Made by a program: the position numbers and the translations under genes. From Acidimicrobiales bacterium (GTDB lineage: Bacteria; Actinomycetota; Acidimicrobiia; Acidimicrobiales; RAAP-2), in the NCBI GenBank assembly GCA_035483935.1, contig DATHPK010000029.1, forward strand, positions 1 to 54,759: a stretch of 54,759 nt of DNA, written 5' to 3'. Below are positions 1 through 18,528 of this stretch, one piece after another. The notes beneath the pieces were generated by a model. It was given only the letters and a program-made list of their open reading frames with translations. It did not search any database and was not told where the DNA came from. The stretch's first letter is position 1, and each line of letters starts with the position of its first letter.

Positions 1-354
1 CAGGTTGAATTGGAGGGCGTCGAAGCCCAGACGCCGGGCCTCCAGCATCGAGTGCTCGACGAGGGTGCGCCCGACACCGGTCCCGCGGTAGGCGGCGAGG
101 ACGAAGTAGCCCGCGTTGGCGATGTGGGCGCCGCGACCGACGAAGTTCGGCTTGATGTAGTACGCCCCGATGAGATAGCTCCCGAACCAGGCAACGTGTA
201 CGGCGGACGAATGCTCGACCCAGTAGTCGTCGAACTCGTCGCGGGTGAGGGGCGCGGACTGGGGAAACCCTTCGCCGGCGGCGACGATGCGGCTGAACGC
301 GCCGAACAGCTCGTCGTAGTCGTCCACGGTGGCCACTTTGATGTCGACCGGCAC
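1..354 (-). CDS. GNAT family N-acetyltransferase, partial (C-terminus lies beyond the left window edge)
   Basis: Absent from the ORF track because it has no stop in the window. Manual reverse translation from GTG 354 gives VPVDIKVATVDDYDELFGAFSRIVAAGEGFPQSAPLTRDEFDDYWVEHSSAVHVAWFGSYLIGAYYIKPNFVGRGAHIANAGYFVLAAYRGTGVGRTLVEHSMLEARRLGFDALQFNL. YRGTGVGRTL fits the GNAT acetyl-CoA-binding R/Q-x-x-G-x-G/A motif. GC3 is very high. The + strand ORF 10..528 is its antisense shadow. Confidence 0.75.
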   Translation of the reverse strand, partial: MPVDIKVATVDDYDELFGAFSRIVAAGEGFPQSAPLTRDEFDDYWVEHSSAVHVAWFGSYLIGAYYIKPNFVGRGAHIANAGYFVLAAYRGTGVGRTLVEHSMLEARRLGFDALQFNL

Positions 355-452
355 GACTCCACGGTAGTGGGTGCGCGCGCCGCGAATCGGGGCACGGGCG
401 GAGCGTTTGCGCCGAACGTCATGCCGCTCGCCGGCAGCGGCCGGCGCAACCG

Positions 453-1289
453 TCAGTGCGCAGCGAAGCCCGTCGTGCCGATGCCCGGGCGCACGGCCTC
501 GATCGGGTCGCGCAGATCGTCGATGTAACCGAGTGCGTACGCGCCGCGGTCGTAGCCCATGAGGCGGAGCAGGTCGACAGGCAACGTCTCGGCCACTTCC
601 CGGGGCACGGAGAGGTACTGGTTCTCCTCCTGGCGCAACCACGCGACGGCATACGTGATGTTCAGCCCGATGCGGGTTGCAGCCGAGTTGTTGGCGCCGC
701 CCCCGTGGTACACGCTGCCCGAGTAAACGAGCACCGACCCGCGCGACATTTCGGCCGGTTCGGTGTCGTCGGGGCCGAAGTTCTGTCCGTCCGCCGATGC
801 GTTGCTGCCGGCGACGACCCGGGTGGCGCCGTTCTCCTCGGTGAAGTCGGTCAGCGCCCAGATCGTGTTGCACTGGACGTCGTACCCGGCCGGGAAGGGG
901 AAGAAGTCGAAGGCCCATTGGTCCCGGTGGACGGGTTGGGCGGTCTCGCCGGGCCCGATGGCGATGGCCTGGGTGAGATGGAGCTGGATGTTCGTGGCAT
1001 GGCCCAGGAACGTCCTCGCCGCACCGAGCGCGAGGGGGTGCATGACAAGCTCCCGGCACGAGGCCGAACGGGCGATGAGCGAGCCGGTGCGGCGGGTCAG
1101 GTTGCCGCTGAAGTCGTCGGGTCCCGTGGGCGTGGCGTCGAGGAAGGGCCGCAACTCGGTCTCGATCCGGTCCAGCAGCGCCGCTTCGGCCACGTCCTCG
1201 ACGATCACCACACCGTCGCGGACGACGGCCGCCGCCACGTCGTCGGGTCCGGCCTCGTTGCTCAAGCGGACGATCGCCACGCCCTTCAT
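453..1289 (-). CDS. Phytanoyl-CoA dioxygenase (PhyH) family Fe(II)/2-oxoglutarate oxygenase
   Basis: Track ORF 453..1316 (-). It contains PVHRDQWAFDFFP (H-x-D iron ligands), GATRVVAGSN and GSVLVYSGSVYHGGGANNS, a typical PhyH layout. Start trimmed to ATG 1289 (MKGVAIVRL) because the track start at 1316 is TTG. Confidence 0.85.
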   Translation of the reverse strand: MKGVAIVRLSNEAGPDDVAAAVVRDGVVIVEDVAEAALLDRIETELRPFLDATPTGPDDFSGNLTRRTGSLIARSASCRELVMHPLALGAARTFLGHATNIQLHLTQAIAIGPGETAQPVHRDQWAFDFFPFPAGYDVQCNTIWALTDFTEENGATRVVAGSNASADGQNFGPDDTEPAEMSRGSVLVYSGSVYHGGGANNSAATRIGLNITYAVAWLRQEENQYLSVPREVAETLPVDLLRLMGYDRGAYALGYIDDLRDPIEAVRPGIGTTGFAAH

Positions 1290-1373
1290 CCTGGACAACG
1301 GCCACAGGCACAGCAACTCCGGGTGACCCTCGCTTCGCCCGCCGTCTTCGGGACGTTGCGCCCCGCGTCTGTG

Positions 1374-1682
1374 TTACTGCGCCGGCGGCCCCGCCGTCAC
1401 CAGGCCGAGCTCGGCCAACTTGCGCAGGGTCTGGCGGACGTCGTCGCCCATGACCTCCGCCTGGACGGGATACGCCTCGGCGAGCTCGTTGACCATCTCG
1501 CCGACCGTCCTCGAGCCGTCACAGAGATTCCACACCGCACCCGCGCTGGAGTTGAGCAAGATCATCAATTGGCCCACGTCGTCGTAGAGGGCGATGTTGT
1601 CGTCCAGCTCGACGGCCGACGCTCCCTCCCGGCGCACCGGTACCGAACCCGCCTCCGGCCACGAAGCCTCCACGACCGCCAT
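1374..1682 (-). CDS. PqqD family protein (RiPP recognition element, peptide chaperone)
   Basis: Last 102 codons of track ORF 1374..2519 (-): MAVVEASWPEAGSVPVRREGASAVELDDNIALYDDVGQLMILLNSSAGAVWNLCDGSRTVGEMVNELAEAYPVQAEVMGDDVRQTLRKLAELGLVTAGPPAQ. Size and the LN-x-S-A-x-x-W-x-L-C-D-G-x-x-T-V-x-E pattern are classic PqqD. ATG 1682 lies 2 nt after the kinase stop (TAG 1687-1685). The rest of the track ORF is an Arg/Gly-rich shadow of the kinase gene. Confidence 0.85.
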   Translation of the reverse strand: MAVVEASWPEAGSVPVRREGASAVELDDNIALYDDVGQLMILLNSSAGAVWNLCDGSRTVGEMVNELAEAYPVQAEVMGDDVRQTLRKLAELGLVTAGPPAQ

Positions 1683-1684
1683 TC

Positions 1685-2596
1685 CTACACCCGGGTGCCC
1701 AAGAGGCCGAGCACCAGGCAGCAGGCCGCGTCGAGGTCGGAGAAGGCGAGCGAGTACCCCGCGCAGTGCGCCGCCAGCCGGCCAAGCGCCTGCGACCCGG
1801 TCGCGCCGTGGGGCAAGAGGTTCACCGCGTGCAGCGCCAAGGCGAAGAAGACTTCCGTCTCGGTCAACGGAACGAGCGCCGTCTCCGCAGACGGGTCGTA
1901 GCGGGGAACGATCACGAAGCCGGGCTCGCACGGTTCGCCGACACGCCGGCCCGTGCCGTCGCCGACGGGAACCTGCCACTCCCCATCGCCCTCTCCCTCG
2001 AGCATGTTCGGCGCCATGTCCGCCAGCACGCCGAAGCTGCCCGGTTTCACGGTGATCGGCTTCGGGTACGGCAGCAGTCGACCCGGCCCGGAGCCGGAGC
2101 CATCGAGCTCGAGCGCGACCAGCTCGTCGCTGAGATACCCGAGGCCCGTGCGCACGAGGCCCGCCGTCAGTGTCGACTTCCCCGACCCCGACGCCGCCGG
2201 GACCAGGATCCCGACACCCGAGGCCTCCAACCCACCGGAGTGGAAGAGCAGATGTTCGCCGCTGAACTCGGCGGCGAGACGGTTGACGTCCCAGACGATC
2301 CAACCGGCCGCGACGCCCGGCGCCAACCCGGACTCGACAACTTCCCCGTCGCGGCGGATGTCGACGGCGCCGGACCTCTCCGGCGAGGCGGTCAGCGAGT
2401 AACGGTGGGGCGCCGGCTGCCCGACGCCACCGCCATCGGCAGCATCGATCCCAAGGTCCGCGTCCAACAGCGACGACAACAACGCGGTGACATGGGCACC
2501 GAGGGCCGCGTCCTCGCAACAGACCGCGAAGCGGTAGGAGAGTGCCTTCAGGTCGGGGGTGCAGTGCGCCCGGGCGTGCGCGTCAAGCACGGGCAC
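1685..2596 (-). CDS. HPr kinase/phosphorylase C-terminal-domain-like P-loop kinase (HprK-related)
   Basis: Track ORF 1685..2596 (-), 303 aa. Walker A ILVPAASGSGKSTLTAGL is followed by GYLSDELVAL, as in the HprK-like kinases that accompany PqqD genes. GTG 2596 lies 3 nt after the stop of the upstream gene (TAG 2602-2600). Confidence 0.8.
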   Translation of the reverse strand: MPVLDAHARAHCTPDLKALSYRFAVCCEDAALGAHVTALLSSLLDADLGIDAADGGGVGQPAPHRYSLTASPERSGAVDIRRDGEVVESGLAPGVAAGWIVWDVNRLAAEFSGEHLLFHSGGLEASGVGILVPAASGSGKSTLTAGLVRTGLGYLSDELVALELDGSGSGPGRLLPYPKPITVKPGSFGVLADMAPNMLEGEGDGEWQVPVGDGTGRRVGEPCEPGFVIVPRYDPSAETALVPLTETEVFFALALHAVNLLPHGATGSQALGRLAAHCAGYSLAFSDLDAACCLVLGLLGTRV

Positions 2597-2599
2597 GGA

Positions 2600-3082
2600 C
2601 TAGGTCGGGTCGACCTGGCTCCCCGCCTCGTGCGCCCCGGTCGCCGGCTTCGGCGTCCGGCTGGCCCAGTGGTGCATCGCCCAGCCGCCGGCGATGAGCG
2701 CAGCGCCGATCTCGGCGTCGCGCTGGATGTCGATACCGGTGAACGCCAGTGTCGAGCCGGGCGACGTCGCCGGTGAGGACGCGGACGCCAGGGTCGCCGG
2801 GGTCGAGCCCGTGGTCGTGCCAGCGTCGGTCGACGAGGGGCTCGTCGTCGGGTTGCTCGAGCTGCCGCCGCCCGGCGGGGTGGTGTGATTCCCTGAAAGG
2901 GTCGCGCCCGCGGCCGGCTTGGCCGTGAGGATCTCCGGCACCACCCATGCCGCTGCGCCTGCGCTGGCCGCCACCGACATCCGCCCGAGGGCCTGGCGCC
3001 TCGAAAACGTCCGGCCGGAGCAGGCGTCGCCCGCTGCAACCGGAGGGGTCACCCCATCTCCATCCGTCCGCTGACTGTCCAT
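2600..3082 (-). CDS. Small exported Ser/Thr/Pro-rich protein with twin-arginine signal and C-terminal LAFTG + hydrophobic segment (putative class E sortase sorting signal)
   Basis: In-frame part of track ORF 2600..3169 (-). ATG 3082 gives 160 aa: MDSQRTDGDGVTPPVAAGDACSGRTFSRRQALGRMSVAASAGAAAWVVPEILTAKPAAG...STLAFTGIDIQRDAEIGAALIAGGWAMHHWASRTPKPATGAHEAGSQVDPT. GC3 is near 100 percent in this frame downstream of 3082 but only about two thirds between 3169 and 3083. The two other overlapping minus ORFs (2548..3039, 2583..3182) are Arg-rich shadows. Confidence 0.7.
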   Translation of the reverse strand: MDSQRTDGDGVTPPVAAGDACSGRTFSRRQALGRMSVAASAGAAAWVVPEILTAKPAAGATLSGNHTTPPGGGSSSNPTTSPSSTDAGTTTGSTPATLASASSPATSPGSTLAFTGIDIQRDAEIGAALIAGGWAMHHWASRTPKPATGAHEAGSQVDPT

Positions 3083-3369
3083 CTTGTCCGTCCGTCCTTT
3101 GGTCCCCGAGGGAGCCTGTACCGCAGTTCTCCCACTTGAGCAGCACTTTTCTGGCTGGATCGCCGGCAAGTCCGCATGCCACGACCCTGCGCCACTTCGG
3201 CTGCAGTGGTTGAGTAACGCCCGATCGCTCCGTTTACTACCGCAGTGCCTCGGACCGGTCAGAATTGCGCACTATTTGTGCAATCCCAGTGTCAGCTTCC
3301 GGGCCTGGGCGCTCGGCACTCGCAACGACTCAGGGACTCTCCGAGCGAGGCGGGCGGCATGATGAGCAA

Positions 3370-4503
3370 GTGAGGGGCGGGTCGAAGGTCGTGGATACGT
3401 CGATCGAGCCGACGGCGCAACTGCTCTGGGAAGCGTGCCGCGCCGATCCCGACCCGGAGGGGGTGCGGCAGGCCCTGGCCGGTGGCGCCGACCTCGCCCG
3501 TGCGGTTTCGGCGGCCGAGGAACACCGGATCAGCCCGCTCCTGTGGCGAGCGCTCGATGCGGCCGGCGCGTTGGACGCGCTCGGCCCGGACCGAGCCGCG
3601 CTCAAAGGGACCTCCGACGCGTTCGCCATGGAAGCCCTCCTGCTGATTCCGCGTGCGATGGAGCTCGCGATCGGACCGCTCACCGCCGCCGCCTTGGAGC
3701 CGGTCGTCTTCAAGGGGCCGGCCGTCGCCGCGCGATATCCGCGGCCCGGCCTGCGCCCCATGGAGGACATCGACCTGCTGCTCCCCCGCCGCGACCATGC
3801 CCGCGCTCTCGGTGCATTGGCCGGGGTGGGATGGACCGTCGTACGGGCGGCGGAGGGTGAGCAGTACGACACCGTCCTCACCCATCCCGAGGTTCCATCG
3901 CTGTTCCTGGAGCTGCACTTCGGGCTCGAGACCGCATCGCAACGGGTCACGGCTCTCGATCCCGTCACTCTGTGGTCCCGCCGCCAGGCCGCCGTCGTGG
4001 CCGGTACGCCCGCGTTCGTCCTGCCCCAGAACGAGGAGCTCGTCGTGCTCGCCGCACATGCCGGCAAACCGCACCACGGCTTCGTCCGGCTGGTGTGGAT
4101 CGCCGACATCGCAATGATCGTGGAGGCTGCCGCGAACGACGGTGACCCGATCGATTGGGAGCGTGTGCGCGCGGTCGCCGCGTCAACTCACTGTGTCACC
4201 GTCGTCGGCGCCGCCTTGGCCTTGGCACGTCGGGCGGGTGTCGATGCGCCGACGGCCTTGTTCCCACTTCCGACCCGGGGCTGGAGAGGCGAAGCGATGC
4301 AGCAGCTGCTCTCGGTGACCTGGCCGCTCACGCATCTCGAGCTGCCGGGCTATCAACTGAACTACGCGTTGACCGACGACCGCGTGCAGCGACTCAAGAT
4401 CCTTTTGGTCCTGCGCGGATCCGGCCACGGGATCGGACGGCGCGTGCGCCGCATCGCGGCCCTGCCGCGCCGGGCGCCGTCAGGGACCGGAACACCCGAC
4501 TGA
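3370..4503 (+). CDS. NTP_transf_5 family (uncharacterised polymerase-beta-fold) nucleotidyltransferase
   Basis: Track ORF 3265..4503 (+). VVFKGPAVAARYPRPGLRPMEDIDLLLP carries the G-x(n)-D-x-D nucleotidyltransferase motif. The overall length and the ELHFGL / HAGKPHHGF regions fit the NTP_transf_5 family that co-occurs with PqqD and HprK-like genes. GC3 is only about 55 percent between 3265 and 3369, so the start is placed at in-frame GTG 3370 (alternative GTG 3391). The 5' end is uncertain. Confidence 0.8.
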   Translation: MRGGSKVVDTSIEPTAQLLWEACRADPDPEGVRQALAGGADLARAVSAAEEHRISPLLWRALDAAGALDALGPDRAALKGTSDAFAMEALLLIPRAMELAIGPLTAAALEPVVFKGPAVAARYPRPGLRPMEDIDLLLPRRDHARALGALAGVGWTVVRAAEGEQYDTVLTHPEVPSLFLELHFGLETASQRVTALDPVTLWSRRQAAVVAGTPAFVLPQNEELVVLAAHAGKPHHGFVRLVWIADIAMIVEAAANDGDPIDWERVRAVAASTHCVTVVGAALALARRAGVDAPTALFPLPTRGWRGEAMQQLLSVTWPLTHLELPGYQLNYALTDDRVQRLKILLVLRGSGHGIGRRVRRIAALPRRAPSGTGTPD

Positions 4504-4528
4504 CGAAACACACGCAGCAAGACTTCGG

Positions 4529-5287
4529 CTACACACCGGGGAACACCCGTCGCAGCAGGTCGAGCACCTCGCCGTTGGCGGGTACCGCTGGGCTGTGAGC
4601 AGGATCCAAGCGGCCGTACACGAGGCGGCAGAATGACTCCGCCGGGAGCTCCAGGTCTGGCTCGACGCCACCATCGCCCTCGAGCAACTGTGCGGATACG
4701 GGCGTGAGGCGCACGGTGAAATGACGGAGGGGGTCGCGGGTGCGGACCCGGACCTCACGCTCGTCGCCGGTCGGCTTCGCGGCGAACCGGCCGATCATGC
4801 CCAGGTTGTCGATGATGACCGCCGCGGCGTCCGCCGGGAGACCGGCCCCGCCGTCCGACATGACCTCGATGTCCCAGGTGTGCAGCGCATGCTCGTTCAG
4901 GCGGAGGGCGGCCGCCGTCTCGAAGCTCAGCGTCACCGGCCCGAAAGGGATCTCGATGCGCCTGCGATCCTCGTCGCCCACCGCCTCGAAGGCCTTGCCG
5001 AGGCGCTCGTCCTCGGCCAGCGCGTCGTCCGCTTGCGCCTGCGGCGACTTGGCGTTCCATTCGTCCCAGACCGGCTGGGAGACGTCGTCGGGGAGCGGAA
5101 CGCCCGCGAGGGCGGCCTCGAGACGGCGCCCCAAGAGCACCGCGCCCGAGCCCAGATGGGACAAGACGTCCGCAATGGTCCACCCGGCGTCGAAGGACGG
5201 GCTCTCGAGCTGGTCGGCGTCGAGGCCGCGCACCAGCTCGCGCAGCCTTTGGACCGATGCGGCCAGGGGTGGCAGAGGGTTCTCCAT
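4529..5287 (-). CDS. Maleylpyruvate isomerase N-terminal domain / DinB-like mycothiol-dependent enzyme family protein
   Basis: Track ORF 4529..5287 (-), 252 aa. The N-terminal SPSFDAGWTIADVLSHLGSGA motif and the C-terminal SCP-like region are typical of the actinobacterial MDMPI_N family. Confidence 0.8.
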   Translation of the reverse strand: MENPLPPLAASVQRLRELVRGLDADQLESPSFDAGWTIADVLSHLGSGAVLLGRRLEAALAGVPLPDDVSQPVWDEWNAKSPQAQADDALAEDERLGKAFEAVGDEDRRRIEIPFGPVTLSFETAAALRLNEHALHTWDIEVMSDGGAGLPADAAAVIIDNLGMIGRFAAKPTGDEREVRVRTRDPLRHFTVRLTPVSAQLLEGDGGVEPDLELPAESFCRLVYGRLDPAHSPAVPANGEVLDLLRRVFPGV

Positions 5288-6975: not shown

Positions 6976-9453
6976 ATGCAGCCCCTGCGCCAAGGCGAGG
7001 CGGAGAAGACGGGTGTGGAGGCTTCGGGCAACGGGTTCGGCGCCGAACCGGTGGCCGACCAGGCCGGGAGCCGGGCCTCGTGGCGCAGCCGAGCCCGCTC
7101 CCTGGTGCTCGGACCCCAGGGGGGCGGCACCAGCCGACGGCGGGCGTCCGACGTGGTCAGAATCGTCGTGGCGGTCGTCGTCATCGTGCTGTGCGTGCCG
7201 CTGGCACGGGCCAACACGTCGCCGGAGGTGCACGTCTCGGAGCTGCTGACACCGGCGCCGAACGGCGTGAAATGGTTGGTCACGACCTTGTGGTTCGTCG
7301 GCTCTCTCGGCGTGATCCTCGGCCTGGTGGTGATCGGACTGCTCGTCCCGAAGCTGGCCGCAGTGCGTCAGATGGCGCTGGCCGCAGTGACCGCACTGCT
7401 CGCTTGCCTGTTGATCGACGCCGCGTTGGGCGGCGCAGTGGGGCGGCCGCCCGTTCCTCAACTTTCGGGTTTCGACCCGCATTTCCCCGTGGTGCAGTTA
7501 GCCGTCGCGACGGCGGTGGCCCTGGCCGGCTTGCCCTATCTGAGCCGCCCGGTGCACCGACTTGTCGGCGCGGCCGTCTCGGTGGCTGCCCTCTGCGCCG
7601 TCGTCGGTGGCTACGGGCTCCCCCTCTGTGTCGTGGCGGCGATCGCCCTCGGTTGGGGTACGGCCGCCGCGTGCCACCTGGCGCTCGGCACCCCCAACGG
7701 GCTCCCCTCGGCGGCGGAGGTGGCCGCCGCGGTGCGCGACCTGCACGTCGAGGTGCGCGCTCTCGAGGCGGCCGACCAACAGGAGTGGGGAGTGGCGGCC
7801 TTTGCGGGGAGGGATGCCCTCGGCAGGCCCATCGAGCTGGCGGTGTACGGGAGGGACGCGGCCGACGCGCAGTGGCTGCGCAAGCTCTCGCGCTTCTGCA
7901 TCTACCGCGACTCCGGCCCGACCCTGATGTTCAACCGCTTACAGCAGGTGGAGCACGAGGCATACCTGACATTGCTCGCAGGGAACGCCGGTGTGCGCGT
8001 GCCCGAGGTCGTCGCGGCCGGGCGATGCGGACCCAGCCGCGACGCGGCCCTCGTGACCAGGTTGCCCGACGGCGAGCGGCTGGCCGGGTGCACGCCAGAG
8101 AATGTCAGTGACGAGGCGGCCGATGCCGTGCTGGATGCCGTCCTGCGCCTGCGCGCCGCTGACATCGCGCACAGCGCACTCAGCCCGCAGACCATCGTGA
8201 TGGGCACCGACGGGCCCGTGCTCCGCGACTTCCGAAGGGCATCCTCCTCCGCCCCACCGCTCCGCACCGACCGCGACGTCGCTGGCGTCTGCGCGGCGCT
8301 CGCCGCGGTGATCGGTATCGACCGGGCGGTCGCCGCGTCGTGCCGTGTGCTCGACGGCCACACGATCACATCGGTCCTCACGCTGCTCCAGCGATCGACC
8401 GTCGAGTCGGAGACGCAGCGCCTGGCGCGTTCGCAAAAGGCATTCATCCGGACCCTGCGTGAGGCGCTGGCGGCGAAGGCGGGCATCGAGGCGCCCAAGC
8501 TCGTAGAGCCGAAGCGGATCAGCTGGCCCAACTTCTTGATGTTGATCGGCAGCCTGGTCGGGCTGTGGCTCATCATCGGGGTGCTGACCGACGTATCGGG
8601 CTCGTTGAGCGTGATCCGGGGGGCGGCCTGGGGATGGGTCGCCGCCGCGTTCGTGCTGGGCCAGCTGCCGGTGGTCACGGGCGCCTGGGCTCTCACCGGC
8701 GCCGTCATCGGCACGCTGCCCTTCGGAAGATGTGTCGCCCTCGAGACCTCCAACCTCTTCACCTCGTTCGTGGGAGGTGACGCCGCCGTCTTCGGCGTGC
8801 GGGTGCGCTTCTTCCAGCGCCAGGGCCTCGACGTCCCCTCGGCCATCAGCTCGGGAGCCATCGCGGGCACGGCCAGCTGGATCGTGAAGGGAGCGCTCTT
8901 TCTCGTCTGCATCCCGTTCGCCGCCGGCGACTTCCACAAGCCGACCGACGAGGGCGCCAACTCGGGGATCGTGTGGATCTTGATCATCGTCGTGCTGGCC
9001 GTCGCGGTCCTGGCGGGGGTGATCGCACTCGTTCCCCGGATCCGTCGGCTCGTCACGGAGAAGGCGCGACCGCATGCCGTGACCATCTGGAAGGACGTCA
9101 AGGCGATCGCCGTCGAGCCGCGGAAGATCGCCTATGTGCTCTGCGGCTCGGCCGGCAGCCAGATCCTCATCGCACTCTGTCTCGGCGCGTCGCTGCATTC
9201 GGTCGGCGAGCACGCCAGCTTCGCGAGCCTCATCGTCGTCTTGACGCTCGCCTCCATGATCGGCGGCGCGGCCCCGGTGCCCGGCGGAGCGGGTGTCGTC
9301 GAGATCGGTCTGATCGCGGGCTTGACGAGCGTCGGGATCCCTCAGGATCAGGCAGTGGCCGCCGTGTTCATCGAGCGGCTGTGCACCGCGTACCTGCCGC
9401 CGATCTGGGGGTGGGCCACGCTCGTCTGGATGCGACGCAGCGATTACGTCTGA
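6976..9453 (+). CDS. Large integral membrane protein: N-terminal TM bundle, central kinase-like domain, C-terminal lysylphosphatidylglycerol-synthase-TM / flippase-like (UPF0104) domain
   Basis: Track ORF 6976..9453 (+), 825 aa. The central part has several hydrophobic helices followed by a soluble domain resembling RIO/LPS-kinase folds. The C-terminal 330 aa has multiple TM helices ending in GGAAPVPGGAGVVEIGL, typical of the LPG_synthase_TM family. Confidence 0.8.
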   Translation: MQPLRQGEAEKTGVEASGNGFGAEPVADQAGSRASWRSRARSLVLGPQGGGTSRRRASDVVRIVVAVVVIVLCVPLARANTSPEVHVSELLTPAPNGVKWLVTTLWFVGSLGVILGLVVIGLLVPKLAAVRQMALAAVTALLACLLIDAALGGAVGRPPVPQLSGFDPHFPVVQLAVATAVALAGLPYLSRPVHRLVGAAVSVAALCAVVGGYGLPLCVVAAIALGWGTAAACHLALGTPNGLPSAAEVAAAVRDLHVEVRALEAADQQEWGVAAFAGRDALGRPIELAVYGRDAADAQWLRKLSRFCIYRDSGPTLMFNRLQQVEHEAYLTLLAGNAGVRVPEVVAAGRCGPSRDAALVTRLPDGERLAGCTPENVSDEAADAVLDAVLRLRAADIAHSALSPQTIVMGTDGPVLRDFRRASSSAPPLRTDRDVAGVCAALAAVIGIDRAVAASCRVLDGHTITSVLTLLQRSTVESETQRLARSQKAFIRTLREALAAKAGIEAPKLVEPKRISWPNFLMLIGSLVGLWLIIGVLTDVSGSLSVIRGAAWGWVAAAFVLGQLPVVTGAWALTGAVIGTLPFGRCVALETSNLFTSFVGGDAAVFGVRVRFFQRQGLDVPSAISSGAIAGTASWIVKGALFLVCIPFAAGDFHKPTDEGANSGIVWILIIVVLAVAVLAGVIALVPRIRRLVTEKARPHAVTIWKDVKAIAVEPRKIAYVLCGSAGSQILIALCLGASLHSVGEHASFASLIVVLTLASMIGGAAPVPGGAGVVEIGLIAGLTSVGIPQDQAVAAVFIERLCTAYLPPIWGWATLVWMRRSDYV

Positions 9454-17103: not shown

Positions 17104-17682
17104 TCAGCCGAGGCGGCCAAGCCAGGAGGCCACGACTTCCGCGGCCGCCCTTTCGCTCTTGCGCAGGGAGTGGTCCCCGTCGACGAGGGACAGCGTCACG
17201 TCGCCCGGGATCGCCGCCGTCTCGCGCTCGAGCTCGTCCGGGCTGGCGAAGGCGTCGCGCCGGCCCGAGACGAAGAGGCACGGGATCTTCAGCGCGGGGA
17301 AGTGCTCGGTGCGCAGCCGGTCGGGCTTCCCCGGCGGATGGAGCGGATAGCTCACCAGCACGAGCGCGGCGGGGTCGAGGCCGTCCGCCACGGCCATCGA
17401 GCACATCCGGCCGCCGAAGGAGCGCCCCCCCACGGCGATCTGGTGGAGCGGGACGTCGAGGCGCTCGGCCAACGCGGACGCGGCGGCGCGCACCGTCTCG
17501 ATGCACACGGCCGGCGGGTCGGTCCGGCGCTTGCCCGCAGCCTGTCCCGGGAACTCCACGCGCTCGACGGCGATGCCGAGCGGCGACACCGCCGCCTCGA
17601 TGGCGACCAGACCAGAGTGGTCCCGCCCGGCGCTCGCCCCGGGGGTCACGACGAGACCGGCGACGTGGGGGCGACGGGGCAC
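17104..17682 (-). CDS. Alpha/beta hydrolase family protein (dienelactone hydrolase / KANL3-Tex30-like)
   Basis: Track ORF 17104..17682 (-), 192 aa. Nucleophile elbow VGGRSFGGRM and a C-terminal D-G-D-H-S region. Confidence 0.75.
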   Translation of the reverse strand: MPRRPHVAGLVVTPGASAGRDHSGLVAIEAAVSPLGIAVERVEFPGQAAGKRRTDPPAVCIETVRAAASALAERLDVPLHQIAVGGRSFGGRMCSMAVADGLDPAALVLVSYPLHPPGKPDRLRTEHFPALKIPCLFVSGRRDAFASPDELERETAAIPGDVTLSLVDGDHSLRKSERAAAEVVASWLGRLG

Positions 17683-17724
17683 TCAGGCCAGTCTGTCCCA
17701 TCGCCACGGCGCGAGAGTGTCCGG

Positions 17725-18528
17725 GTGCCGCCCGCTGCCAGCCCGACGGATTGGCGGGAGCGCCTCGCACGCGCGGTGGGAACGCTCGCCGGCGAGCGGA
17801 CGCTGGGTGCCAACGCGTGGTTGGTCGAGGCCGGCGGCCGGGCGCTCGTGGCCAAGACCGCGCCCGGCGCCCGCGACGAGGCCGACGGGCTGCGACGGCT
17901 CGGCGCCGTCGGCGCCGCTCCCCCCGTCCCCGAGGTCGTCTTCGCCGACGGCGAGCTCCTCGTCACGGTGGCGGTCGACCAGGCGCCGCGCTCACCGGCG
18001 CACGAGGAGGCGCTCGGCCGCGCTCTCGCCGCGCTGCACGCGACGCGGCTCGAGCACTGGGGTGGCGGCTCCTCCTGGATCGGCGCCTGCCCGGTCGACC
18101 CTTCGACGTGGCCCGACGGCGCGGCGTTTTACGGCGCCCGGCTCTCGGAGCTCGCGGCCCGCGGGGGGCTGGAGGACCCGGTCGGCCGCGTCGTCGCCCG
18201 TCTGCCCGAACTGCTCCCGCCCGGTGGCCCGGCGCTGCTCCACGGCGACCTCTGGTGGGGCAACGTGCTGTTCGGCGCCGACGGCCGGGGCTGGCTCATC
18301 GATCCCTCGGTGCACGGGGGCCATCCCGAGGAGGACCTCGCCATGCTCGGGCTCTTCGGCGCGGTGCCGGATCGCCTTCTGGCCGCCTATGAGGAGGTCA
18401 ACCCGCTGGAGCCCGGGTGGCGGGAACGGGTCGCGCTGTTCCAGCTCTATCCGCTCCTGGTGCACACCGTCCTCTTCGGCGGGGGGTATCGGGCCCAGGC
18501 GGAGGCCGCGGCCCGCCGGTTCTCCTGA
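17725..18528 (+). CDS. Fructosamine kinase family protein (aminoglycoside-phosphotransferase fold)
   Basis: In frame with track ORF 17170..18528, whose first part is antisense to the hydrolase gene. LLHGDLWWGNVLF and IDPSVHGGHPEEDLAML are fructosamine-kinase signatures. Start set at GTG 17725 (uncertain). Confidence 0.8.
   Translation: MPPAASPTDWRERLARAVGTLAGERTLGANAWLVEAGGRALVAKTAPGARDEADGLRRLGAVGAAPPVPEVVFADGELLVTVAVDQAPRSPAHEEALGRALAALHATRLEHWGGGSSWIGACPVDPSTWPDGAAFYGARLSELAARGGLEDPVGRVVARLPELLPPGGPALLHGDLWWGNVLFGADGRGWLIDPSVHGGHPEEDLAMLGLFGAVPDRLLAAYEEVNPLEPGWRERVALFQLYPLLVHTVLFGGGYRAQAEAAARRFS

Follow-up and report, generated by a model that had tools for sequence, protein, structure and literature searches.

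The window, by which we mean the whole 54,759-nt stretch of Acidimicrobiales DNA analyzed here, carries a module of four genes that move and duplicate together in related genomes, encoding an NTP_transf_5 nucleotidyltransferase, a 160-aa mini-protein, an HprK-related kinase and a PqqD protein. The locus looks like an actinobacterial relative of the tailoring machinery of linear polyphosphorylated peptides (LPP) and phosphorylated lassos. On balance we lean toward a role in which the module modifies the mini-protein at Ser63 before Tat export, followed by retention at the envelope, a chemistry that we infer by analogy with characterized systems.

Gene calls and profile searches recovered all six genes of the initial annotation at the same positions, and its family assignments held against Pfam and NCBIfam profiles. 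On the minus strand, the genes for the mini-protein (2600-3082, GC3 0.88), the kinase (1685-2596) and the PqqD protein (1374-1682) are separated by only 3 nt (2597-2599) and 2 nt (1683-1684), with the kinase GTG start 3 nt past the mini-protein stop and the PqqD ATG start 2 nt past the kinase stop codon. This arrangement places the mini-protein, a putative precursor or substrate, directly upstream of the kinase-PqqD pair, in the precursor slot. Farther along the same strand are a PhyH-family dioxygenase (453-1289; PF05721, E = 1e-26), for which TTG at 1316 is a second possible start, and a GNAT acetyltransferase (1-354; Acetyltransf_1 PF00583, E = 8e-8) that is cut by the window edge and whose complete orthologue in L005 has 164 aa. 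The nucleotidyltransferase gene (3370-4503, plus strand) diverges from the mini-protein gene across exactly 287 nt (3083-3369), and its GTG start agrees with the 377-aa length of most homologues.

As read from the sequence, the catalytic motifs of the kinase and the nucleotidyltransferase are intact. The kinase aligned to nearly the full length of the HprK_rel_A model (NCBIfam TIGR04352, E = 9e-32), at 110 bits, below the model's cutoff of 200, and matched Pfam Hpr_kinase_C only at E = 0.0024. Its Walker A motif (A135-SGSGKST) is invariant among homologues, and the Foldseek matches of its AF2 model (pLDDT 80.8) were led by ATP-dependent PEPCK (E = 7e-6), ahead of HprK/P (E = 3e-3). The nucleotidyltransferase, of the Pol-beta fold (PF14907, E = 5e-38), corresponds to the "N" enzymes LppN and PsmN. 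Its G127..D133xD135 motif is invariant in 41 homologues, and its AF2 model (pLDDT 88.6) weakly matched the NTases MenT1, ANT(2'')-Ia and LnuA, plus FKRP. The PqqD protein is a discrete PqqD-type RiPP recognition element (RRE; PF05402, E = 7.6e-16) whose best PqqD-type PDB matches were LppB (9x8z_B) and lasso TbiB1, both as full-length alignments, with weak similarity to LppB (E = 0.046). The residues of LppB that bind the leader, N33 and D70, correspond in the alignment to N44 and D81, which are invariant in 66/66 orthologues, and Thr stands at the position aligned with LppB pocket residue F74. PqqD-kinase gene fusions were found in other lineages.

The 160-aa ORF had no Pfam or NCBIfam match at E <= 0.01, and nearly all of the 466 homologues found are unnamed or "hypothetical". 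It begins with a leader that reads as a Tat-type signal peptide (aa 1-60, 2903-3082, minus strand), in which S27RRQALG (2984-3004) is followed by a moderately hydrophobic stretch and a predicted signal-peptidase site, A58-G-A60 (2903-2911). A 48-aa middle rich in Ser, Thr, Gly, Pro and Ala follows (aa 64-111, 2750-2893); this low-complexity region varies from 27 to 73 aa in 47 homologues, averaging 36% S+T, 23% G, 14% A and 9% P. The conserved C-module (2660-2749) runs from L112-A-F-T-G (2735-2749) through IDIQRDAE and IGAALIAGGWAMHHW (2666-2710) to AS(R), comprising a weakly hydrophobic segment and then a tail with R and K. The initial annotation took LAFTG for a sortase sorting tail. LA[FMYSQK][TS]G is present in 44/47 homologues, the three most divergent being without it. 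The hydrophobic segment is weak (Kyte-Doolittle hydropathy only about 0.65) and the window mini-protein matched no LPXTG model, falling below the cutoff of every curated LPXTG-anchor model, which makes the putative sorting signal atypical. The window contains no sortase or Tat gene.

Variation in SRRQALGRMS by codon position (0.44/0.23/1.01 bits, 63 homologues) shows that the RR motif belongs to the translated protein and is maintained by purifying selection. Some gene callers put the mini-protein start at Met35, past this motif. The window mini-protein reached no curated Tat-signal model cutoff, scoring only 14.6 bits against TIGR02811; three relatives, L060, L064 and L069, have N-modules that pass TIGR01409. 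At the predicted cleavage site, Ala occupies -1 in 53/55 family members and a small residue occupies -3 in 55/55. Upstream of this site lies the near-invariant W46-V-V-P49-E-I51 (2930-2947), a candidate RRE-binding motif of the form [Y/W]xxPx[L/V/I]. Tat signals in general often have a Pro at the h/c boundary, so the motif could be partly generic. Relative to predicted cleavage the register is W-15/P-12/I-10, followed by the AGA site and Ser+3, which is Ser63 (2894-2896) of the predicted mature N-terminus T61-L62-S63-G64. Ser+3, which 53/55 family members carry, is the sole Ser with a fixed position relative to the motif. Among lineage representatives, 11/22 have Ser at the register position against a 12.7% background (binomial P about 3e-5, a statistic defined post hoc on non-independent lineages).

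Combinations of this kind were regarded as undescribed in the initial annotation. However, Popov et al. (Nat Commun 2026; PMC13381572) reported LPP systems, which are cyclase-free clusters of an RRE, an HprK-like kinase and an NTP transferase, so a lasso-free RiPP family of this type is already known. Their linear precursors of 35-200 aa are polyphosphorylated on Ser3, and the systems were reported as confined to Bacillota, with their own signal peptidase and exporter (PMC13381572). Lasso and LPP RREs bind [Y/W]xxPx[L/V/I], at W-15, P-12 and L-10 in PbaA and at Y-16, P-13 and V-11 in LppA (PMC13381572); the window motif has the same positions as PbaA and lies near those of LppA. LppK phosphorylates Ser3 of the core (PMC13381572), as does BsfK together with B1 (PMC10368454). 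By this analogy, and from family conservation, Ser63 is a candidate (poly)phosphorylation site, and the likeliest target is this one Ser beside the cleavage site and not the broad decoration of the Ser/Thr/Pro region proposed earlier. The LPP leader is removed by a signal-peptidase-I-type enzyme, and LppN had no activity in the sole LPP reconstitution (PMC13381572). Whereas Bacillota LPP clusters include a SipW-like peptidase and an MsbA-like pump, the window locus has no dedicated peptidase or pump. What is new here is a leader merged with a Tat signal, cargo carrying a putative LAxTG sorting signal, and apparently general instead of dedicated export.

In 58 genome loci of Acidimicrobiaceae/Acidimicrobiales, the kinase-PqqD pair is accompanied by a mini-protein homologue. 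The homologue directly precedes the kinase gene in 57 of these loci and lies roughly 5 kb off in L025. Mini-protein identities are 35-75% and kinase identities 40-81%. This gene unit is conserved in soil Acidimicrobiaceae. Since synteny in the family spans the entire 20-kb neighbourhood, flanking metabolic genes included, much of this co-conservation could reflect general synteny, and only rearranged or duplicated loci and distant lineages tell the module apart from its neighbourhood. Such loci include OY970336.1, with a second module copy that lacks PhyH and GNAT (L014 vs L030), and L015, with a tandem copy of the four module genes. The nucleotidyltransferase gene adjoins the mini-protein gene in Acidimicrobiaceae loci, is displaced with it as a pair in L025, and is duplicated with it in L015 and in the additional pairs of L024 and L047. 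Extra mini-protein paralogues in L020, L026 and L028 resemble the multi-precursor arrangement of RiPP clusters. LMW phosphatases adjoin the module in L014 and L075.

The dioxygenase and acetyltransferase, suggested earlier as tailoring enzymes, are probably neighbours outside the module, because they are missing from the relocated second copies L014 and L045, are far more conserved than the genes of the module, and adjoin a catabolism-type block (ECH, second PhyH, P450). PhyH is mostly 80-93% identical across loci where the kinase is 40-81% identical, and GNAT has the same distribution as PhyH. The absence of lasso genes was borne out: no cyclase, B2 protease or short precursor was found in the window or past its left edge in syntenic relatives. 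Every gene in the first 10.4 kb belongs to a non-lasso family, and the large ORFs beyond are all metabolic. In the syntenic relative L005, which has an 80% identical kinase, genes for an enoyl-CoA hydratase, a second PhyH, a P450, an alpha/beta hydrolase, MFS, TetR, an SDR and an FMO occupy the 8 kb beyond GNAT.

Related kinase/PqqD(/NTP5) genes also occur in other Actinomycetota and in Chloroflexota, where they lie beside proteins with unrelated mature parts, including an LPNTG Pro-rich protein that passes TIGR01167 (Jiangella anatolica L075), a choice-of-anchor P protein (L085), a Caldilineaceae protein (L069), Cys-rich domains and 60-70-aa peptides. The N-module alone is common to these neighbours (RR, h-region, [W/Y/F]xxPx[ILVM], AxA), and the RRE-type motif occurs in kinase-linked neighbour proteins at about 20 further loci.

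Modification before Tat export, as first proposed, is the best-supported reading because a [W/Y]xxPx[ILV] motif lies within a Tat-type signal, in the register of characterized precursors, with a conserved Ser+3. The 160-aa protein would be synthesized with W46xxP49xI51 in the h/c-region of its signal, where cytoplasmic PqqD would dock as lasso B1 and LppB do on their motif and offer the adjacent segment to the kinase. Ser63, the third residue past the predicted AGA site, would be (poly)phosphorylated, and the nucleotidyltransferase may add a nucleotide-derived group, such as a sugar, to the phosphate. The general Tat pathway would then export the protein and housekeeping signal peptidase I would cut the leader, standing in for the SipW-like peptidase and MsbA-like pump. 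The LAFTG C-module would keep the ~50-residue Ser/Thr/Gly-rich peptide at the envelope, by sortase wall anchoring or through the C-terminal segment.

The same module might act on the same substrate at other sites, either many Ser/Thr of the middle, the version of the initial annotation, which would yield a phosphoglycan resembling mucin or teichoic acid, or the cytoplasmic C-terminal tail (..EAGSxxDPx). The Ser+Thr content of the middle favors the former, and the latter accords with paeninodin-type kinases, which target a C-terminal Ser, and with the ..AGS..DP[TS] ending common among close homologues. We consider this version unlikely, as the middle is hypervariable in length and sequence and gives way to Cys-rich or folded domains in other lineages, the last residue varies (A, T, D, G, S), and only Ser+3 keeps its position relative to the motif. 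A little less probable is export control, with PqqD as a proofreading-type chaperone holding back the Tat signal, for which TorD/DmsD offer an analogy, and phosphorylation or nucleotidylation near or in the signal switching export or cleavage. The signal peptide is the sole element common to all putative substrates, and the LMW phosphatases would suit such a switch, but Ser63 lies past the predicted cleavage site and so would remain on the product, and we know of no case in which an RRE protein serves as a Tat chaperone.

The mini-protein might instead have an accessory role in the envelope, as a scaffold, immunity protein or anchor, with the enzymes acting on another peptide or a non-protein molecule. 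This accords with its weak Tat and sortase HMM support, yet we find it quite improbable given that it is the sole conserved small ORF at the locus, shares the RRE-type motif with the kinase-linked neighbours elsewhere, and multiplies inside clusters as precursors do. A decaying phosphorylated-lasso remnant, or a chance juxtaposition maintained solely by the 20-kb regional synteny, is disfavoured as highly improbable: all four genes are under purifying selection at identities down to 35-50% with invariant catalytic motifs, and the module is copied and moved as a whole and recurs in other phyla.

The 287-nt divergent control region contains conserved DNA blocks on the mini-protein strand at 3262-3283, 3214-3243 and 3110-3135 (alignment of 12 relatives). 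Intergenic alignments revealed no further conserved small ORF, as the conserved blocks have indels of lengths not divisible by three. An Rfam search of the region returned no match and its consensus RNA fold was weak. The sequence GGTAGTAAAC was found in 22 loci, with a single copy in each.

The window DNA is 70% GC, and its nearest relatives are Acidimicrobiales/Acidimicrobiaceae metagenome-assembled genomes. Listing the ORFs, analysing GC3 and scanning with HMMs bore out all six genes named in the initial annotation, at the coordinates it gave: a GNAT gene (1-354, minus strand) and a PhyH gene (453-1289, minus), both found by ORF listing and HMM scan, a PqqD gene (1374-1682, minus; PF05402, E = 7.6e-16), a P-loop kinase (1685-2596, minus; TIGR04352, E = 9e-32), a 160-aa ORF that we call the mini-protein (2600-3082, minus; ORF listing and GC3) and an NTP_transf_5 nucleotidyltransferase, hereafter NTP5 (3370-4503, plus; PF14907, E = 5e-38). 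The spacing it had reported, with intergenic gaps of 3 nt and 2 nt and a divergent region of 287 nt, was exact on re-measurement.

The kinase matched Pfam Hpr_kinase_C marginally (E = 0.0024). Its best curated model was NCBIfam TIGR04352 (HprK-related kinase A), matched near full length at 110.3 bits where the equivalog cutoff is 200 bits. The Walker A motif is invariant, and Foldseek searches with a structure model (pLDDT 80.8) returned ATP-dependent PEP carboxykinases and then HprK/P, the expected superfamily relationship. In the NTP5 model (pLDDT 88.6) the NTase core is of the Pol-beta type; Foldseek matched it weakly to MenT1, ANT(2'')-Ia, LnuA and FKRP, and the DxD motif of NTP5 is invariant. 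PDB sequence searches with the kinase and NTP5 gave no useful match, and a kinase profile run against PDB found marginal HprK matches only. The kinase-PqqD gene pairing recalls the HPr-rel-A system (TIGR04352 with the TIGR04353 PqqD family peptide chaperone), and the window PqqD protein also matches TIGR04353, although both window scores fall below cutoff (110 vs 200 bits for the kinase; 23.7 vs 35 bits for PqqD). We found no published substrate for HPr-rel-A in the literature, and literature searches on HprK-related kinases, NTP_transf_5 and RiPP recognition elements (RREs) with twin-arginine signals returned nothing relevant. Natural fusions with an N-terminal PqqD domain and a kinase domain occur in Proteobacteria and Actinomycetota lineages (L066, L073, L074, L076-L078), and the 411-aa Acidimicrobiaceae protein P0074, which carries a PqqD domain, is another. 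These fusions provide Rosetta-stone evidence that the RRE and kinase work as one unit.

Scanning kinase loci in one genome per GTDB species yielded 79 loci. A mini-protein homologue accompanied the kinase in 58/58 Acidimicrobiaceae/Acidimicrobiales loci, so that the neighbourhood comparison called for in the initial annotation came out in favor of co-conservation with the kinase-PqqD pair. Since the whole neighbourhood is syntenic in Acidimicrobiaceae, adjacency by itself is weak evidence, and the rearranged loci are the informative ones. In genome OY970336.1 NTP5, mini-protein, kinase and PqqD are present twice; the second copy (L014) has no PhyH or GNAT, and an LMW phosphatase gene and ThrRS come after it. 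The module at L045 also lacks PhyH and GNAT. The four module genes are in tandem at L015, additional NTP5 and mini-protein pairs are found at L024 and L047, additional mini-protein paralogues at L020, L026 and L028, and at L025 an NTP5 and mini-protein pair has been relocated jointly to the far side of PhyH/GNAT. These duplications and relocations show that four genes form the functional unit: NTP5, mini-protein, kinase and PqqD. The genes that had been suggested as possible tailoring enzymes, PhyH and GNAT, are mostly 80-93% identical between loci, much above the 40-81% identity of the kinase there, and they adjoin a block of catabolism-type genes. Based on their distribution (both absent from L014 and L045) and their context in L005, we rejected them as tailoring members of the module; they are probably neighbours and bystanders.

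An LMW phosphotyrosine-phosphatase-family gene adjoins the kinase/PqqD module in two unrelated contexts, the relocated Acidimicrobiaceae second copy (L014:11687-12319, minus; PF01451, E = 3e-16) and Jiangella anatolica (L075:2565-3089, minus), where a CX5R motif is the sole basis for the family assignment. This phosphatase may edit or reverse the modification, or may just be a Wzb-type neighbour from an exopolysaccharide locus. In many MFD MAG loci (L009, L012, L013, L015, L019, L026, L040, L043, L047 and L054-L059) the frames of the mini-protein, NTP5, kinase or flanking genes are split; these are most likely long-read homopolymer errors, not pseudogenes, and they hamper automated precursor detection.

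The mini-protein family comprises 466 homologues, nearly all nameless or annotated "hypothetical", and consists of two strongly conserved modules flanking a hypervariable middle. The N-module reads SRRQAxGRMSAVATAGAAAWVVPEILTAKPAAGA[T/A]LSG and the C-module LAFTG[LI]xIQRDAE[IV]GAAL[IV]AGGWAM[HQ]HWASR, while the middle spans 27-73 aa in the family (S+T 36%, G 23%, A 14%, P 9%) and is a low-complexity stretch of 48 residues in the window protein. The window protein has a Tat-type layout of S27-R-R-Q-A-L, the moderately hydrophobic segment MSVAASAGAAAWVV and A58-G-A60, in agreement with the Tat pattern of Z-R-R-x-hydrophobic-hydrophobic, h-region and AxA. It reaches no curated Tat HMM cutoff (TIGR01409 / PF10518) and scores just 14.6 bits with TIGR02811; the N-modules of proteins at three distant loci (L060, L064 and L069) pass TIGR01409 at 17.2-20.3 bits vs a cutoff of 16.7. 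Several gene callers place the mini-protein start downstream of the RR motif. Codon variation across SRRQALGRMS in 63 homologues was 0.44/0.23/1.01 bits at positions 1/2/3, indicating that the RR region is translated and constrained.

Near the C-terminus, the window mini-protein has an LAFTG pentapeptide at aa 112-116. LA.[TS]G is found in 44/47 homologues, and the three most divergent ones lack it and retain the remaining C-module. Class E sortase substrates of Actinobacteria, such as the Streptomyces chaplins, are small secreted proteins with LAxTG near the C-terminus, a hydrophobic stretch and basic residues. The mini-protein shares its small size and this order of elements, in which the segment IGAALIAGGWAMHHW precedes R142 and K145. 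It differs in that this hydrophobic segment is weak (Kyte-Doolittle ~0.65) and unusually conserved, the tail is long and acidic, the LPXTG-anchor models (TIGR01167, PF00746) do not match and the window has no sortase gene; the sortase-like TLxTC motif was found in no window ORF.

The closest described counterparts are the linear polyphosphorylated peptide (LPP) clusters, which lack a cyclase. Alongside the precursor LppA they encode LppB, which is a discrete RRE, the HprK-like kinase LppK and the uncharacterised NTP transferase LppN; the leader is removed in an RRE-dependent manner by LppS, a SipW-like signal peptidase I, and LppD is an MsbA-like pump (Popov et al., Nat Commun 2026, PMC13381572). 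LPP precursors, 35-200 aa in length, are conserved at the N-terminus (YxxPxVLxHQxIxFETxxS) and vary at the C-terminus. LppK polyphosphorylates core Ser3, and LppN was inactive in the only LPP reconstitution (PMC13381572). The RREs bind [Y/W]xxPx[L/V/I], which LppA has as Y-16/P-13/V-11 and PbaA, a paeninodin-like precursor, as W-15/P-12/L-10; LPPs and paeninodins are stated to be restricted to Bacillota, where LPP clusters have a capsule- or polysaccharide-locus context (PMC13381572). The initial annotation had regarded RiPP-like machinery repurposed for decorating a cell-surface protein as not known to be described, a novelty claim superseded by this 2026 publication of cyclase-free RRE/kinase/NTP-transferase clusters.

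The window module also has no lasso cyclase and combines a discrete PqqD-type RRE that can be aligned with LppB, an HprK-like kinase identified by TIGR04352, Walker A and its PEPCK/HprK fold, a PF14907 NTP transferase that is likened to LppN by enzyme class, and a candidate precursor whose 160 aa fall inside the 35-200 range, with a conserved [Y/W]xxPx[V/L/I] N-terminus and a variable C-terminus. Among PqqD-type PDB entries, the window PqqD protein best matched LppB (9x8z_B) and the lasso RRE TbiB1, with full-length alignment; the LppB match (E = 0.046) was ungapped over 74 residues. PqqD N44 and D81 align with LppB N33 and D70 and are invariant in 66/66 close orthologues and predominant in distant ones, and in LppB N33 holds the kink at the leader Pro (PMC13381572). 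Pocket positions V50, L67, L89 and L94 remain hydrophobic, and the equivalent of LppB F74 is Thr.

With cleavage after A58-G-A60, the candidate register is W(-15)-V-V-P(-12)-E-I(-10) through A(-1), followed by T1-L2-S3-G4 of the predicted core, which would equal the register of PbaA with Ser at +3. Across the family, the predicted cleavage site has A at -1 in 53/55 members and a small residue at -3 in 55/55, and Ser occupies +3 of the predicted mature protein in 53/55. Set against the LPP skeleton [Y/W]xxPx[VLI]L...S, WVVPEIL and Ser+3 match with a one-residue offset (W at -15, not Y at -16), but HQxIxFET is absent, and with it the extended LPP consensus VLxHQxIxFET. Unlike the LPPs, which were reported from Bacillota only, the window system belongs to Actinomycetota and has relatives in Chloroflexota; its leader of ~60 aa has a twin-arginine n-region and an h-region that look like a Tat signal, and its cargo ends in an LAxTG sorting-signal-like module. 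Neither an LppS-type SipW-like signal peptidase gene nor an LppD-type MsbA-like ABC exporter gene was found in ~10 kb of the window rightward or 8 kb of L005 leftward, the sole transporter near the module being an MFS protein ~5 kb past GNAT in L005. Leader removal from the mini-protein is predicted to use signal-peptidase-I-type chemistry, as in LPPs.

Phosphorylated lasso peptide systems are further close counterparts. Lasso kinases phosphorylate a C-terminal Ser and PsmN adds hexoses to that phosphate (PMC8498205), and BsfK with its B1 RRE phosphorylates core Ser3 (PMC10368454). The window resembles these systems (paeninodin/ThcoK/SyanK, Bsf, pseudomycoidin) in combining an HprK-like kinase, with or without a nucleotidyltransferase, and a B1-type RRE, in a counterpart of the WxxPxL motif at -15 and in Ser3, the residue phosphorylated by BsfK. 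In contrast to them, it has no Asn-synthetase-like macrolactam cyclase, B2 protease or ~40-aa precursor in or near the locus, and the candidate substrate is a 160-aa protein with an export signal. No Asn_synthase match was obtained among the cassette genes, the largest window ORFs or the L005 flank, no transglutaminase-like B2 leader protease adjoins the module within ~10 kb from the left end of the window or in the 8-kb L005 flank, and no ~40-50-aa lasso precursor lies next to the module, the intergenic alignments containing no conserved small ORF. The absence of lasso genes from the window, as first annotated, thus held in the genes and ORFs scanned. Instead, the first 10 kb encode MDMPI, ArsR, AHSA1, an LPG-synthase-like membrane protein, a rhodanese and a cysteine dioxygenase, and large ORFs beyond are metabolic. 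Because the public contig stops at the same place as the window, the left flank was judged by synteny in L005 (kinase 80% identical, gene order alike), where the 8 kb past GNAT hold enoyl-CoA hydratase, a second PhyH, P450, alpha/beta hydrolase, MFS, TetR, SDR and FMO genes; the lasso set that might have lain beyond the left edge was not found there. An AsnB at the distant locus L092 was rejected as a hidden lasso cyclase, as it has a full GATase domain and a strong Asn_synthase match and lies among glycosyltransferases.

Two further genes in the window were noted. An 825-aa LPG_synthase_TM membrane protein (6976-9453, plus) is conserved at a distance of a few genes in most Acidimicrobiaceae loci, with no evidence of membership in the module system. 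A fructosamine-kinase/APH-family phosphotransferase (17170-18528, plus), whose longest ORF has an N-terminal extension of ~200 aa, lies amid ABC-transporter and monooxygenase genes and is unrelated to the module.

More distant kinases were represented by loci L060-L080, taken from the genome scan, and L081-L160, obtained by scanning metagenomes with a subset of the alignment. In a near-versus-far test, a loose N-module regular expression picked up too much out-of-frame Arg-rich noise from DNA of 70% GC, and we used a stricter filter and a curated lineage table. Beside the distant kinase/PqqD(/NTP5) genes there are, time and again, proteins that have only the N-terminal module in common ([ST]RRxxLK, h-region, [W/Y/F]xxPx[ILVM]x[ST][LI], AxA) and whose mature parts are unrelated to one another. 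They include a Pro-rich LPNTG protein that passes TIGR01167 in the isolate Jiangella anatolica (L075), Cys-rich domains of ~100 aa (L060, L061, L064, L082, L083, L086, L092), larger domains (L076-78, L100, L103, L107), 60-70-aa Gly/Asn/Gln/Lys-rich peptides (L070, L108-L110, L115), a Caldilineaceae protein (L069) and a "choice-of-anchor P" protein with a Tat-type N-module (L085:6306-7010, minus; NF040603, E = 7e-21), which supports a tie between the system and surface-sorted cargo. The "choice-of-anchor P" family name denotes proteins with alternative sorting signals.

Part of the RRE-type motif may be a generic feature of Tat signals. Ser is found at the register position, which is index 18 when counted after W and index 19 when counted after Y or F, in 11/22 curated lineage representatives against a background of 12.7% (binomial P ~3e-5, for a register picked post hoc and 22 lineages that are related), and 21/22 have Ser or Thr within indices 17-19. 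Several of the distant systems, at L092:1864-5006, L062:4984-6906 and L085:3-605, are embedded in polysaccharide-type loci, a further likeness to LPP clusters. Pfam identifies a GT4 glycosyltransferase and a GATase-domain AsnB at L092, and protein N-termini at L062, L085 and L092 were judged by eye to be Wzz-like ("EYLRILRRRW").

The reading that best explains the window locus is an LPP-like system in which an RRE guides a kinase and an NTase and the leader would be merged with a Tat-type signal peptide. PqqD would bind W46xxPxI in the cytoplasm, the kinase would (poly)phosphorylate Ser63 and NTP5 might elaborate the phosphate. Tat would then export the modified mini-protein, general signal peptidase I would cut off the leader, these two standing in for the absent LppD and LppS, and the LAFTG module, a putative sortase signal, would keep the product at the envelope. 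TorD/DmsD/NapD-type proofreading chaperones bind the twin-arginine signal of their cognate substrate until maturation is done. The PqqD protein, also small and cytoplasmic, is proposed by analogy to hold the twin-arginine signal of its substrate, but its wHTH fold is unrelated, and the proposed maturation would modify a side chain covalently instead of inserting a cofactor. The core idea of the initial annotation survives in this proposal, while the tailoring role of PhyH/GNAT probably falls on their distribution, and the novelty claim is superseded by the 2026 LPP paper.

More broadly, and as a tentative generalisation that we rate as possible rather than probable, a widespread system beyond Bacillota (in Actinomycetota, Chloroflexota and possibly more) may use an RRE whose target motif lies inside a Tat signal peptide to couple N-terminal Ser (poly)phosphorylation, and possibly phosphate-linked glycosylation, to export of secreted, sortase-anchored or otherwise sorted proteins. 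RiPP leader logic would here be merged with a general secretion signal, Tat and signal peptidase I would replace the dedicated protease and pump, and the product would be a surface protein with a polyphosphate or phosphoglycan tip. Relative to LPPs, the system of the window locus and its relatives is new in its spread to other phyla, in the proposed fusion of Tat signal and RiPP leader, in having no peptidase or pump of its own, and in its sorted or secreted cargoes. If the proposal is true, LPP and phosphorylated-lasso tailoring chemistry would no longer be confined to Bacillota, and its substrates would include exported and surface-sorted proteins as well as short peptides. A RiPP leader fused to a twin-arginine signal would also illustrate how RiPP machineries recruit general secretion and signal peptidase, with a plausible evolutionary link to the signal-peptidase-type leader protease of LPPs. 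The proposal makes a testable site prediction, Ser63 dependent on W46/P49, and the envelope or cell-wall destination together with a cultured carrier, Jiangella anatolica GTF31, would offer a tractable route to the role of polyphosphorylated products.

The divergent region between the mini-protein and NTP5 contains three DNA blocks conserved on the mini-protein strand (3110-3135, 3214-3243 and 3262-3283): TTGCACAAATAGTGCGCAATTC, an imperfect inverted repeat GCGGTAGTAAACG-N11-CGTTAC, and GTGGGAGAAC..GTCTCCC. The inverted-repeat core GGTAGTAAAC occurs once per locus in 22 loci. A riboswitch or leader-RNA reading of the region was dropped, as it had no Rfam match and the consensus RNA fold was weak (-5.5 kcal/mol) with little covariation. 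A promoter/terminator scan of window positions 1-4700 found nothing over shuffled expectation. The blocks are probably operator or promoter elements. Next to NTP5 lies a conserved 4-codon mini-uORF, ATG ATG AGC nnn TGA (3359-3373, plus), whose stop overlaps the NTP_transf_5 GTG/ATG start. Its core, CGGCATGATGAGC, is kept in 12/12 aligned relatives (with one substitution in L011) and the sequence just upstream is unconserved, a pattern that suggests translational coupling or a leaderless uORF.
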